A DNA stretch of 64,000 bases from Candidatus Spyradenecus sp. (lineage in GTDB: Bacteria; Verrucomicrobiota; Verrucomicrobiia; Opitutales; UBA953). A program made the position numbers. Shown here in pieces: positions 42,001-48,000 of this stretch; positions within the stretch are counted from its first letter, which is position 1, and every line of letters begins with the position of its first letter. Location of the stretch: contig JAZSKX010000001.1 in assembly GCA_045535075.1 (NCBI GenBank), positions 32,001 through 96,000 of the forward strand, written 5' to 3'.

Positions 42001-45000
42001 TGTGCAACGGCGACCCGACCGATCACGATTCGATGAAAGGCGACACGATCAAGGCGTTTTCCGGCATGGCGCAGGTGATTTTGCGTTCCAAGCGCGATTC
42101 CGCCGGCAAGGCAACGCTGAAAATTTCCGGCGCCAAACTGCCCGCTGCCACCGTCGACATCAAAATCGAAAAACCGACCGCGCGCCAGCTGCGCAACTAA
42201 GCAACGCGCACCAAAGACAAAAAAGCGTTCCCGTGTTTTTTTCACGGGAACGCTTTTTTATTTTTTTGAGTTATCGGGCGTTGCGTTTACGGCGGAAAAC
42301 GAAGAGCGCGAGTGCGTCGATGCGGACTAAAGGCGCAGTTTTTTCGGGAAGAGTTCCGTATTTTATGCGATGGCTATAGTGTGTTTTGTTGTTGAGTCAA
42401 GAGTTGACACTGTCTGTTTTGAATCCGGATTTGTCGAAATTAAAACTCGTTCCCGTGATGAATCTGACTTTTCTTGCGGGAAAAACCGTGTTAATCGGTA
42501 TCGTATATGCGATTTCTGAAAAAATATCGTCTGCGAATTGCGGTGATGTTTGCTTTGTGCTTTATCGCACTTGCGGGAATGGATTATGCTTGTTCCATGT
42601 CTGAATCAAAGCCGGTGCAGTTTTACAATCGTGAGAGCGGTGCGCTCGAAACCGAAGCCATTTTCGGGGAAAAGCCCTTGCGTTGGGTTTATGAAACGCA
42701 CTTGGGAAAGATTGCGCTTTGGGCGTTGATTCGGCGCGCGGCGTTTTCGGAATTTTACGGTTGGTGGATGAGCCGCCCCGCGAGCCGAGAAAAAGTCGTT
42801 CCGTTTTGCCGGGATTTTAAAATGAACACTTCGGAATTTGCCGAGCCGCCCGAAAGCTACGCGTCGTTCAACGATTTCTTTTCCCGCAAGCTGAAGCCGG
42901 GGGCGCGTCCGGTTGTCGCTGACGAAAACACGGCGACGCTTCCCGCCGACGGGCGCCATTTGGTGTTGCCGAAAATTTCTGCCGCGACACAGATTTACGC
43001 GAAAGGGCAGTGCTTTGATTTGGAAAAGTTTCTCGGAGATCCCGCGCTCGCCGCACGTTATGCAGACGGCGCGATGGTATGTTCCCGCCTGTGCCCGACG
43101 GATTATCACCGCTTCCATTTTCCTGTCGCGGGAACGCCGGCGCAGCCGCGCGTGATTAACGGCGCGCTTTATTCCGTCAACCCGATTGCCTTGGCGCGTC
43201 GCGTCGCCTATCTTTGGGAAAACAAGCGCGTTATCGTCGAAATTGATTCGCCGCGTTTCGGGAAGGTAACGCAAGTACTTGTCGGTGCGACGAATGTCGG
43301 AACGATTGTGCCGACTTATGTCGCGGGAACGCCGGCGGAAAAGGGCGACGAACTCGGCTATTTCCGTTTCGGCGGGTCGTTTATCGCGACGCTGTTTGAG
43401 CCGGGAAAAATCACACTTTCGGAAGACTTGGTGAAGCATTCCGAGGCGGGCTTTGAAACCTACGCGAAGACGGGAACGCCGTTGGGGCAGGGAAACTAGC
43501 CGACATCGTTTAATTTGATTGTAAAACAACGGCGGAAAGCGGAAACTCATTCTCAACATGTCCGGAGCTTTTCAAGTTATCGCGCGGCGCTGGCGCCCGC
43601 AGCAGTTCGACGAAATCGTCGGTCAGGAACACATCGTTCGCACGCTGAAAAATGCGATTGAAACCGGACGCATCGGGCACGCGTATCTTTTCGTCGGTCC
43701 GCGCGGAACCGGAAAGACGACGACGGCGCGTATTTTTGCCAAGGCTCTGAATTGTACGAACGGGCCGAGCGTCGCTCCCGGCGCCGACGATCCGATTTGT
43801 AAGGCGATTGTGGACGGCTCGTGCATGGATGTTATTGAAATCGACGCGGCAACGAATCGTTCGATCGAAGACGCCAAGCAAATTCGGGAAGAATGTTATT
43901 TCGCTCCCGCGCAATGCCGCTACAAAATCTATATCATCGACGAAGTTCACCAGCTTTCAAAAGATGCGTTTAACGCTTTATTAAAAGTCATCGAAGAGCC
44001 GCCGCCGCACGTAAAATTCATTTTTGCAACAACGGAAGCCGACAAGGTTTTGGAAACGATCACTTCGCGTTGCCAGCGCTTTGAATTTCAGCCGATTCCC
44101 GAAGCGAAAATCGCCGGCAGGTTGCGCCAAATCACGGAAGCGGACGGAGTCGAAGCCGGAGAGGAAGCCTTGCGTGCCATCGCACGTTTGGCAAACGGCG
44201 GAATGCGCGATTCTCAGTCGATTCTTGACCAGGTAATTTCGTTTTGCGGAAAAAAAATCAGCGAAAAAGACGTGCTCGATATTTACGGCTTGGCTTCCAA
44301 AGAGCAAATTGACGGGCTTGCCGCCGCTCTCGCCGCCGCCGATTATGCGAGCGTCGTAAAATTTGCCGACACGTTTGTCGAAGAAGGTCGCGATCTTTTG
44401 CGCGTGCTCAAACACACGCAGGCGCGCGTTCGCGAAGCGCTTTTGGATTCGATTCGGGAAGGCGGCATTTCTTCGATGCTCGGAACGGCGATGCGTACGG
44501 AACAGCTTTTGCGAATGCTGGACACGCTTCAGGCGGGTGAAGGCGGCGTACGTTTGGGGCTTTCCGAACGTGCCAATTTTGAAGTTTGTCTGCTCAAAGC
44601 CGTCGAACAAAGTCGAACGCGAGCCATTGATGCGTTGATTAAAGATATCGCCGGACTCGCCGCGGGAATGCCCGCCGACGAAGCAAAAAAAAAATAAGCT
44701 GAGCCCGATCGCCGAAAAATTCCGTTGCGCGAATTTGGCGTTTAAGGAAGCGCGCAAAAGCGACGCACAACGTTTTTCGTCTTCCCGCGAAACACTTGCC
44801 GAACTTACGGAGAAGCGCCGCAATGCGCCGGCACGCGAAGTTTTCTCCGATGCTGATGCGCCGCTCCCGCAGTATGATCCGTCTGATGAAGCCGGATTTG
44901 AGCCTGATGCTTCGGAGTGTTTTGATGAGGCGGAATCGAATTCTGGCATGGCGAGCATGCCTCTTCACGAAGCAATCGAACGCGTTCCCGCAATGATTCG

Positions 45001-48000
45001 CAATTTCGTTCGTGAACGCTTTCATGCTGAATTTTCCCGTGTTCGGGCTTCCCGAAACATGTTTTCCTATCGCGATTTCGGCGGAGAAAACAACGCCGAA
45101 GAGGCGGAAGAGCCTTCGGACGATTCCGACGATGTTTAACCCCAAAAAATCTCTACGATGAAAAACTTCGGTTCGCCTCTGAAAATCGGTGTCATTTCCG
45201 ACACGCACGGCTTGTTGCGTCCGGCTGTGTTTGATGTTTTTCGTGACGTTGATCACATTCTTCACGCCGGAGATATTTGTTCCGATGCAATTCTGCGGGA
45301 ACTCAAAACGATTGCGCCCGTTGCCGCCGTCCGAGGAAATTCCGATTATACCCCGCAATGCCGGACGCTCCCGCTGTTTGACATCGTTAAAATCGGTCCG
45401 GCGGAAATCTTTTTGCACCACGGGCACATGGAAGATTTTGATTTTATGCCTGCGGGAACGAACATTGTTGTTTCCGGGCATACGCACTTGCCGCGTGTCG
45501 AACTTTTCGGCGGAATTTTGCGCGTTAATCCCGGGAGTGCGGGACCGCGTCGCCCGAGTGCTCCCGTGAGCGTTGCGATTGTTACGATTTATAATCGCGC
45601 GCGTTCCGCCGAAATCATCGAGCTTCCCGCAGATTGAGAACTTGCCGTTTTAACGGGAAACACTATCTTCTTTTCTATGAAACACTCTCGCTTGCTTCCT
45701 TGGTTTTTCTCTGCCTTGACGGCGTTGTGCGTTCCCGCGCTTGCGGGGTGCGCGGCAGAAAGCTTGCCTGTGTCGGACGTTGCGCCCGGCGTGGAAATTT
45801 CCGTCAAAAAATTGCCGCCGCTTGTCGTTGAAGGAACGAATCCCGCGCAGGGTGTTGCGGGCTCATTTGTGCGGATTAGCGGAACTCCTTATGTTGCCGG
45901 CGGTGCGCTTTTCCCGGAAAAAGGTCCCGCGGACGGAGGAAAGAAAAAGTTTTACGACACGGTTTGGAAGCTGGACTTCGAGAAAAACGCGTGGGTTGTT
46001 TGCGGCGAAAAACTTCCCGTTCCCGCCGCTTACGGTGTTTCGCGCGGGCGGATGTGGCTCGGCGGCGAAAATGCTGACGGCAAGCTTGATTCGCAGTGGG
46101 ATTTTTCCGGCGCGACGGAAGAAAAAATTCGCGCGTGGAAAAAAATGCCCGTGGCACTCGACAACGCGGCAGGCGCGGCGATGTTTGTCGGCGGCGGCAA
46201 CGCGAACGGCGTTCCCGCGAACAAGGCTTTTGAGTATTGGATTAATTCTTTTCCGGGGAAAAAGTGCGAATGGAAAGCGCTTCCGGATTTCCCGGGAACA
46301 CCGCGTGTTCAGCCCGTTGCCGGGCTTTTGCAAACGCCGCGAGGGAACGCGTTTGTGCTCGTCGGCGGATTTTATTTTGACAAGGAAACGAAGAAGGCGA
46401 CTGTCGATCGCGCGGGCGTGATTTATTACCCGCGTGAGAAAAAATGGGAAATGCTTCCGCCGCTTCCGGAGGAAATTTCTGAAGCCGGGCTTGTCGGCTC
46501 CTGTTCCGTTGCGGACAATCGCGGCGGAATGCTGATTTTCGGCGGCGTGAACGCGAAGATTTTTAGGGAAGCACTTGAGACCCCTGCGCCGGATTACCTG
46601 CGCCACGATCCCGCGTGGTATAAATTTAACGCGGATGTTTTGCGCCTTTCTTTTGATAAGAACGGGAACGCGAAATGGGAAAAGCTCGCGACCGTTCCCG
46701 CGACTGCGCGTGCCGGGGCTTCCGCAGTCTCTCCGATTTCAATCAAAGCCGATCGCGAAAAAATTTATTTCATTTGCGGCGAACTCAAACCCGGCTTCCG
46801 CTCCCCGGATTGTTGTTTGATTGAAATAAAGCTTAAAGAAGACCAGCGGTGATGGATGAGAGCTTAGAGGTAATTGCTAAAAGGGACTTTCAGAAACCTT
46901 TTTTGCCGCAGGAAAATGCATCTACCTCTCATCTCTAAGCTATCACTTTTCTCCTCCCTTAATCTTTCCCCTTTTTAAAACTATGGATATCGTAAACTAC
47001 ATTAAAGGACTTGAGGATCCGGCGACGGGAACGTCTCCGACCTTCGACGCATTGGTCATTGTGCTGATGCTCGTCGTTATCGCGATTGTCGCGATTCAGG
47101 CGTGGCGCAAAGGCGTGCGCAACGTTGCAAACCTCGCCGACGCGAGCACCGCGCCGGGGAAATGGGCATGGATTGCCGTCGGCTTGCTCTGGATCGTCGT
47201 GATGCTCAATTATTTCGACCGCCAGTTGCTTTCGGTCGTGCGCGCGCCGATTGTTGAAGATATTCCGATGACGGATGCGCAGTTCGGCTTAATCACTTCG
47301 GCGTTTCTCGTTATTTACGCGGTGCTTAGCCCCGTCGGCGGTTTCCTCGCAGACCGCTATTCCCGCCGCTTGGTCATTCTTTGCTCGCTCGTCGTTTGGT
47401 CCACGGTAACGTGGTGGACGGGGCATGCGGAAGATTACACGACGCTCTTCATTGCGCGTGCCGCGATGGGCGTTTCCGAAGCATTTTACATTCCTGCCGC
47501 ACTCGCGCTTATTACCGACTATCACCGCGGGAGCACGCGCTCGCTCGCAACCGGGATTCACATGAGCGGGATTTACGCCGGGATGGCGCTCGCAGGCTAC
47601 GGCGCAACAATGTCCGACGCTATCGGCTGGCGTATGACTTTTGCCGTCTTCGGTCTCATCGGCGTGCTTTACGGATTTGTTCTTATCGTTTTCCTGCGCG
47701 ATCCGAGCAAGGCTCCCGCAGACAACGCGCGTGAGCAACTTCGTGACGGCGTTCCCGCCGCTACGGAAGAAAAAGCCGTTCCCGTCGCCGATTTTGAAAA
47801 AATGTCCGGTGCGCAGGTTTTCAAAAGCCTGCTCAGCTCCCGCCCGATGTGGATTTTGCTGACCGTCGTCGCCTTCGCAGGCGCAGGCAACTGGTTCCTG
47901 CTCACGTGGTATCCGACGCTTTTGACCGACACCTTTAAGGTAATCCAAGACGTTTCCGTTCCGCTTGCCGACGCGAAGGGCATGGGCGACGTTATCAGCC

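Follow-up and report, generated by a model that had tools for sequence, protein, structure and literature searches.

The dnaX gene of Escherichia coli gives both the tau and the gamma subunit through a -1 ribosomal frameshift on the heptamer A_AAA_AAG, with a Shine-Dalgarno (SD) sequence and a stem-loop. In Thermus thermophilus, dnaX slips transcriptionally on a run of nine A's and tau is the templated frame (Larsen et al. 2000, as related in passages of PMC1088944 and PMC5009743); this is the one tested case of dnaX slippage in the literature. Another 17 two-ORF dnaX genes are predicted, and passages of Antonov et al. 2013 (PMC3711429) describe them as coming from 12 genera, nine with a run of ten A's (A10) and all of the -1 type. 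Transcriptional realignment was proposed there, with frame switching among orthologues that keep the run as the criterion. In Blochmannia vafer and Blochmannia floridanus, making tau also depends on slippage in a poly-A tract, and transcriptional rescue was proposed (PMC3017870).

The locus described here lies in a window of 64,000 nucleotides from the gut bacterium Candidatus Spyradenecus sp. (Opitutales), to which all coordinates refer. The features are as follows.

43558..44697, + strand: dnaX zero-frame ORF of 379 aa, a gamma-sized clamp-loader subunit (AAA+, lid, collar), from Pfam and PDB relatives
44685..44694, + strand: slippage-prone A10 run at the gamma/tau junction, from the sequence; also A10 in DNA runs X1 and X3
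44695..44697, + strand: TAA, the gamma stop if the transcript has 10 or 13 A's, from frame reading
44700..44702, + strand: TGA in the -1 frame, the gamma stop if the transcript has 8 or 11 A's, from frame reading
44696..45139, + strand: tau-specific extension in the +1 frame, 147 codons, joined to gamma at 9 or 12 A's
44960..45055, + strand: conserved C-terminal motif L..A...P...R..L.E.FRA.F..V, two short helices, tail profile 41 bits

The 379-aa DnaX carries the Pfam domains delta2, AAA, lid and gamma3, its best PDB relatives are E. coli tau/gamma, and its ORF is the sole full-length dnaX copy in the genome. The +1 frame stays open between the A10 run and 45139. In computed translations of the window, 9 or 12 A's gave a tau of 526/527 aa, and 7, 8, 10, 11 or 13 A's gave products of 378-381 aa. 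The first-pass annotation had tau reached only if one A is lost. A9 does give tau, but this wording proved too narrow because A12, with two A's gained, works as well and because insertions are reported to predominate in long A runs (in passages of PMC6260861).

As in Thermus, an unbroken run of at least nine A's stands at the gamma/tau junction, stops lie close behind it in both non-tau frames (0 and 2 codons from the run), and one gene would serve tau and gamma. The difference is that tau is not templated in the window, where the tail is at +1, whereas it is templated in 54 of 162 run-bearing relatives; in addition, slippage in Thermus was shown by experiment and the present case is known from sequence. 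Like the two-ORF genes, in which the junction run is mostly A10, the window gene has a zero frame that ends at a poly-A run to give gamma and a second ORF that needs recoding for tau, and the earlier remark that this type is in print was borne out by Antonov et al. 2013, A10 included. All 17 of those genes, among which there may be an Opitutales member, are -1, whereas the window gene has its tail at +1 and all three states (0, +1 and -1) occur within the order. The two predicted products, the single gene and the junction are those of E. coli dnaX, but the A_AAA_AAG heptamer is absent (the base after the run is T in the window and G in 57/162 loci), as are a conserved upstream SD and downstream stem-loop, and the direction is not fixed. 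The Blochmannia tract is situated within the tau-only part, downstream of where gamma ends, and was interpreted as rescuing an erosion frameshift, unlike the Opitutales run, which would form an order-wide gamma/tau switch. Neither the +1 layout nor three-frame flipping of dnaX was found in print, and passages of bioRxiv 2025.10.02.679949 hold nothing on this layout.

A recount at no less than 81% identity again gave A10-11 in 18/18 genus loci, with the tail at +1 in 14, at -1 in one and in frame in three, the frame of L316 and L318 being called from the open frame since the tail profile gave no match. Across Opitutales, the run had been described as fixed; a run of nine or more A's (A9+) was present in 175/211 loci and missing in 36, one of which ends before the site, and several lineages have lost it. 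In 158 kb of gamma-coding body from the first 149 loci, no A9+ run occurred. The rarity of A9+ runs in genes, given earlier as 11 against 118 A8, was seen again in a rough collection of 1296 ORFs from the genome, with 8 sense-strand A9+ runs against 105 A8; synonymous resampling predicted 58 A9+ runs. The genes of this genome contained AAA-AAA-AAA 5 times, where 38 occurrences were expected. The junction run was never interrupted by a G, though AAG makes up 31% of Lys codons.

The tail was callable in all but 27 of the 211 loci. Among the 162 run-bearing loci with a callable tail, 54 were in frame, 40 at +1 and 68 at -1, confirming that the frame of tau flips across the order; over all callable loci, the tail was fused in frame in 76/184 and out of frame in 108/184. 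About 20 frame changes were placed on the tree, against at least 72 in each of 500 label shuffles, with 21 on a second tree and 18-19 among run-bearing loci only. The tail frame follows clades, and whole families share a single out-of-frame state (-1 in 15/15 loci of f34 and 13/13 of f23, +1 in 12/12 callable loci of f3). Between L318 and L308, the frame switched through indels beside the run while run length was unchanged. All 22 callable run-less loci were in frame. None of the 4-7 independent pairs behind the link between run loss and in-frame tau runs the other way, yet the link lacks significance (sign test, median p 0.5); independent losses are few, so that a Fisher p overstates the link. 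In 113/129 run-bearing loci a stop lies within 10 codons in each of the two non-tau frames, compared with 4/13 run-less loci; among control positions the share was 8.6% (n = 2967) and 9.0% (n = 1005).

The best reading of this locus is very probably a Thermus-like programmed transcriptional slippage, and we infer that the slip takes place during transcription. The reading was already made in the first-pass annotation and is supported by the frame flips with the run kept in the 162 loci; transcriptional is preferred over ribosomal recoding because orthologues switch frame while the run stays. Further support comes from the near stops in both non-tau frames, the avoidance of A9+ runs elsewhere and the lack of conserved ribosomal stimulators. 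RNA polymerase would realign on A10/T10 and produce a mixture of mRNAs differing in the number of A's. By ordinary translation, mRNAs with A9 or A12 would give tau and the rest would stop within two codons to give gamma, so both proteins are presumably made. Selection would hold the run at 9-10 A's together with the near stops in both other frames, and since slippage would feed all three frames, the tail's DNA frame would be free to drift among 0, +1 and -1.

An unlikely explanation is that ribosomes make a programmed frameshift on the poly-AAA codons, shifting by +1 at the stop codon in this genome and by -1 in other lineages. The window stop directly follows AAA, a layout suited to +1 shifting, and a passage of Atkins et al. 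2016 (PMC5009743) treats reversed dnaX genes as ribosomal candidates, but the stop lies 2-5 codons off in many +1 loci, stops are kept in both other frames, and the direction flipped about 20 times, whereas ribosomal sites keep their direction among orthologues according to passages of PMC3711429. SD-like words were found upstream in 12/68 of the -1 loci, against 0/40 at +1, 7/54 in frame and 5% of controls; together with the G after the run in 57/162 loci, they suggest that ribosomal -1 shifting may add to the output in the -1 class. Downstream folding was near controls (mean z of -0.70, -0.12 and -0.16 for the three classes; z<-2 in 6-12% of loci versus 1-10% of controls), and upstream folding (mean z -1.3) was observed in the in-frame class only, where it looks like a lineage-specific GCCGGC. 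No conserved start, SD or hairpin was found at the junction of run-bearing Opitutales loci, and nothing in a promoter and terminator scan near the run exceeded shuffles. That the tail is a separate small gene with its own start or translational coupling is highly improbable: gene callers annotate it apart and it contains an in-frame TTG at 44735 and ATGs at 44948 and 44957, but by eye nothing resembling a ribosome-binding site precedes these three, an ATG within 20 codons occurs in just 2/40 +1 and 6/68 -1 loci, 31/40 +1 loci lack any ATG upstream of the final 45 residues, and in-frame fusion is frequent.

Homopolymer assembly error hiding a single true ORF has next to no probability. Homopolymers are error-prone and errors may underlie a few unusual tips (A11, A13), but DNA runs X1 and X3 from two different studies, in contigs about 1% diverged from the window, read through A10 without indel at depths of 47.6 and 8, which refutes the error for the window locus, and the +1 majority in the genus and the clade-coherent frame speak against it. 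It is also highly improbable that tau comes from slipped-strand variation in the DNA, through cells or copies of the chromosome that carry A9 or A12, and that the run is a hotspot of mutation and no signal for expression. Replication slips do get fixed, since single tips differ from their sisters by one A (L050 from L032/L035, L185 from L183, L222 from L188), but the family-wide out-of-frame states could not have persisted were essential tau made by in-frame cells alone, and the two DNA runs show A10, although contigs drop rare variants. The RNA data consist of assembled contigs of two runs from one study and contain no length variant. In RNA run X18, a contig at 43566-44703 (depth 7) holds A10 and ends 9 bases beyond the run, and the next starts at 44730 (depth 2.7), where X1 and X3 are continuous. 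A break at the run would fit mixed run lengths; it was not counted as evidence because X18 has other gaps, X19 lacks the site and both come from a single study.

In the tail, a long, poorly conserved linker is followed by the conserved motif, present once in the genome, and an acidic end; the structure model was confident only for the two short helices. No Pfam family was found for the window tail or for 92 tails, and PDB sequences, Foldseek and VIA-align gave no match to the tail. The motif bears a weak resemblance to the one that ends single-ORF tau proteins in other phyla, and pairwise profiles against the last 50 residues of single-ORF DnaX gave E values of 0.004-0.05 in 4/7 groups (reversed controls, 0.085-0.57). 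The position of the tail, its in-frame fusion in relatives and these weak profile matches suggest that it is the tau terminus. By analogy with tau C-termini, which bind Pol III alpha (passages of bioRxiv 2022.11.10.516041), the motif may bind Pol III alpha (DnaE).

Samples from three other phyla showed the same site in 17/30, 5/30 and 9/29 genomes, where it was not found in print, and dnaX slippage is apparently far more widespread than reported. With 108/184 callable loci out of frame, many Opitutales dnaX genes are annotated as split or truncated, and in-frame dnaX genes of other phyla probably have a hidden gamma product. We consider it somewhat probable that junction poly-A slippage is among the commonest bacterial routes to gamma and goes unseen in single-ORF dnaX genes by the hundreds, in Opitutales, other Verrucomicrobiota classes, Bacteroidota, Planctomycetota, Spirochaetota and more, that it is efficient enough to supply essential tau in any frame, and that only tau is made in lineages that have lost the run and only gamma in some reduced genomes. 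Passages of PMC3711429 and PMC5009743 disagree on polymerase or ribosome for two-ORF dnaX, a question on which the three-frame order bears directly. The order gives matched natural alleles for slippage spectra and tau:gamma ratios and, if tau is indeed supplied in any frame through efficient slippage, would therefore be a natural three-way experiment on tau:gamma stoichiometry.

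At the gamma/tau junction of dnaX in the window, the zero frame closes directly behind a run of ten A's, and the tau-specific tail lies in the +1 frame (reached with one A fewer or two more; the -1 frame requires one A more).

43558-44697: dnaX zero-frame ORF, encoding a 379-aa DnaX
44685-44694: A10 run, with TAA directly after it

When the run length was changed in silico, nine A's gave a product of 526 aa and twelve A's gave 527 aa, while 7, 8, 10, 11 or 13 A's gave 378-381 aa. The first-pass annotation had placed the stop of dnaX correctly after A10, but its statement that tau is reached only if one A is lost is too narrow, since A12 also restores the long product. 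The full dnaX and the tail motif were each found once in the genome, and the A10 was recovered without indel in DNA contigs of two runs from different studies (depth 47.6 and 8; about 1% diverged from the window), indicating that the split is present in the DNA. Most of the closest named relatives were MAGs of Opitutales; several carry the title Candidatus Spyradosoma (81-94% identity), and two closer than these carry Candidatus Spyradenecus. Same-strand neighbours (window 42507-46852) were an upstream phosphatidylserine decarboxylase, a metallophosphoesterase starting 19 bases past the stop of the tail, and a NanM-like kelch protein.

For the order, 251 genomes were searched, giving 250 matches at the default cut-off, some of them weak; 211 loci were read (the 149 best-scoring, 60 lower-scoring ones covering the remaining families, and 2 more), with about 40 matched genomes outside this count. 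To place the tail, a profile of the C-terminal motif was built from 12 in-frame loci lacking A9+ and refined in three iterations over the first 149 loci; a frame was called at 10 bits or more if open from the run (184 called; 27 dropped, 13 with and 14 without the run). A9+ was present at the junction in 175/211 loci, and the gamma body contained none in 158 kb (first 149 loci). Among run-bearing loci with a called frame, 54 were in frame, 40 at +1 and 68 at -1, and all 22 run-less ones were in frame, so that the tail was fused in frame in 76/184 loci. The occurrence of tau in all three frames, claimed in the first-pass annotation, was thus confirmed, as was its genus count (run in 18/18; 14 at +1, 1 at -1, 3 in frame), but a run fixed throughout Opitutales was not, being absent in 36/211.

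Several loci deviated individually. In L064 the motif of the tail is encoded in +1, a frame that closes directly past the run, whereas frame 0 has 161 open codons; this suggests another indel downstream, either genuine or an artefact of assembly. L043 (G118:C3:1506189 and 1507959) has two tandem dnaX matches with the same scores and without the run, which suggests a duplication or an assembly repeat. Gamma-sized dnaX (354-372 aa) without the run was observed in families f20 (L198, L201, L204, L205, L229, L234) and f4 (L196, L224), in reduced genomes of 0.8-1.4 Mb; several have another gene directly after, and no tail was detectable at these loci. In family f8 the motif is kept in frame and the linker is nearly lost (about 400 aa).

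The tail consists of about 85 poorly conserved residues followed by a motif of 45 residues, for which two helices are predicted. Pfam, PDB and fold searches gave no match for it. A weak alignment was obtained with the motif at the end of single-ORF DnaX from other phyla (E 0.004-0.05 in 4/7 groups; reversed controls 0.085-0.57). We read the tail as the probable tau terminus, which by analogy may bind DnaE.

On the gamma-protein tree the frame changed 20 times, whereas none of 500 shuffles gave fewer than 72 changes; a second tree gave 21 changes, and 19 among run-bearing loci. Single-state families were f34 (15/15) and f23 (13/13) at -1, f3 (12/12 callable) at +1 and f24 (10/10 callable) in frame, others being mixed. 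Some frame switches trace to a change of one base within the run (L050, L185, L222), others to an indel next to it that left A10 intact (L318 and L322 versus L308). Run presence changed 7-9 times across the two trees, and the association of run loss with frame was not significant after phylogenetic correction, with only 4-7 independent pairs and 0 reversed. Ten or more A's were found in 80/90 out-of-frame versus 19/39 in-frame loci, a difference confounded by lineage.

Outside Opitutales, a rest-of-phylum sample of 43 loci, several picked for short ORFs, had A9+ in 0/9 same-class loci and A9-10 inside the scanned stretch in 10/34 loci from other classes, with 3 more slightly beyond. In three other phyla, drawn evenly, with each count including a seed chosen for having the run and frames judged by the longest open frame, A9+ occurred at residues 350-460 in 17/30 Bacteroidota (phylum taken from the title of the seed record; 10 in frame, 7 at -1), 5/30 Planctomycetota (3 in frame, 2 at -1) and 9/29 Spirochaetota (all in frame), and before residue 340 in 0, 0 and 2, respectively. 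Both other frames stopped within 12 codons in 16/17, 3/5 and 6/9, and no +1 layout was found among these run-bearing loci. A9-11 at residues 378-425 with close stops in both other frames was observed in 8/74 non-Opitutia loci, belonging to Ignavibacteriota, Desulfobacteria, Planctomycetia, Bacteroidota, Fibrobacteria and one Leptospira-titled record; Bacillota loci of this sample had no run.

L409, L416, L432, L433, L438, L441, L451, L453: the eight single-ORF dnaX loci

In L408, L446 and L546, A9-10 lies near dnaX residue 516-518, about 40 codons before the end and just ahead of the terminal motif.

In the genome of the window, sense-strand runs in a rough collection of 1296 ORFs numbered 1759 (A6), 510 (A7), 105 (A8) and 8 (A9+), against 1270, 409, 143 and 58 expected by synonymous resampling; AAA-AAA-AAA was found 5 times versus 38 expected. 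An A8 in the gamma-coding part of dnaX (window 44250-44257) is one base short of the avoided length. The only other intragenic A10 lies between the domains of a fusion of HAD hydrolase and the helicase loader DciA, where the other frames close 1 and 3 codons past the run, an anatomy as at the dnaX site.

G000:C10:7100-8275 (L467:1104-2276), minus strand: HAD-DciA fusion with A10 in the genome of the window

The long DciA-bearing ORF was matched in 18/18 other genomes of the genus, the A10 itself in 4/19 genomes only (G000, G221, G377, G378); in most other families DciA is short and encoded on its own, and no literature on this A10 was found. A T11 (window 28743-28753), longer than any other A/T run in the genome, ends 2 bases ahead of the ATG of a 427-aa ORF (28756-30039), whose C-terminus we take to resemble a PEP-CTERM sorting signal, and is upstream of a divergent gene that is presumably methionine-synthase-like.

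Transcriptional slippage and ribosomal frameshifting make different demands on the junction, since transcripts of varying length require both other frames to be closed, whereas for a shift by the ribosome a single alternative frame is enough. Both non-tau frames stopped within 10 codons in 113/129 run-bearing loci of the first set; the corresponding shares were 8.6% and 9.0% at control positions and 4/13 among run-less loci. Closure of both is also described for Thermus (PMC1088944, PMC5009743). According to Antonov et al. 2013, the direction of recoding is constant among orthologues at ribosomal sites but not at transcriptional ones (PMC3711429). No conserved start codon, SD or hairpin was found at the junction in the order loci. 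Against transcriptional slippage, SD-like words were raised in the -1 class (12/68 versus 5% in the control), and a G directly follows the run in 57/162 loci. Avoidance starting at nine is given by Baranov et al. 2005 for slippage-prone genomes (PMC1088944), but it does not separate transcription from replication slippage.

The layout of the window dnaX resembles the 17 two-ORF dnaX genes of Antonov et al. 2013, nine with A10, for which transcriptional realignment was proposed (PMC3711429) and among which an Opitutales genome may figure; all 17 are -1, a direction that the window dnaX does not share. Atkins et al. 2016 place reversed dnaX under ribosomal frameshifting (PMC5009743), the poly-A frameshift of Blochmannia dnaX is of a different kind (PMC3017870), and Tashjian and Chien describe three mechanisms, one organism each (bioRxiv 2022.11.10.516041). 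In a search thin on subscription journals, no paper was found that deals with slippage at the dnaX of Opitutales or Verrucomicrobiota, describes a +1 two-ORF dnaX with this junction, or covers the spread of dnaX slippage across phyla.

The junction is a real, conserved recoding site. Judging from sequence, recoding at the run is most likely transcriptional slippage, and the window site would work like that of Thermus. At long A runs insertions are reported to outweigh deletions, with exceptions (PMC6260861), so A12 may be as much a source of tau here as A9.
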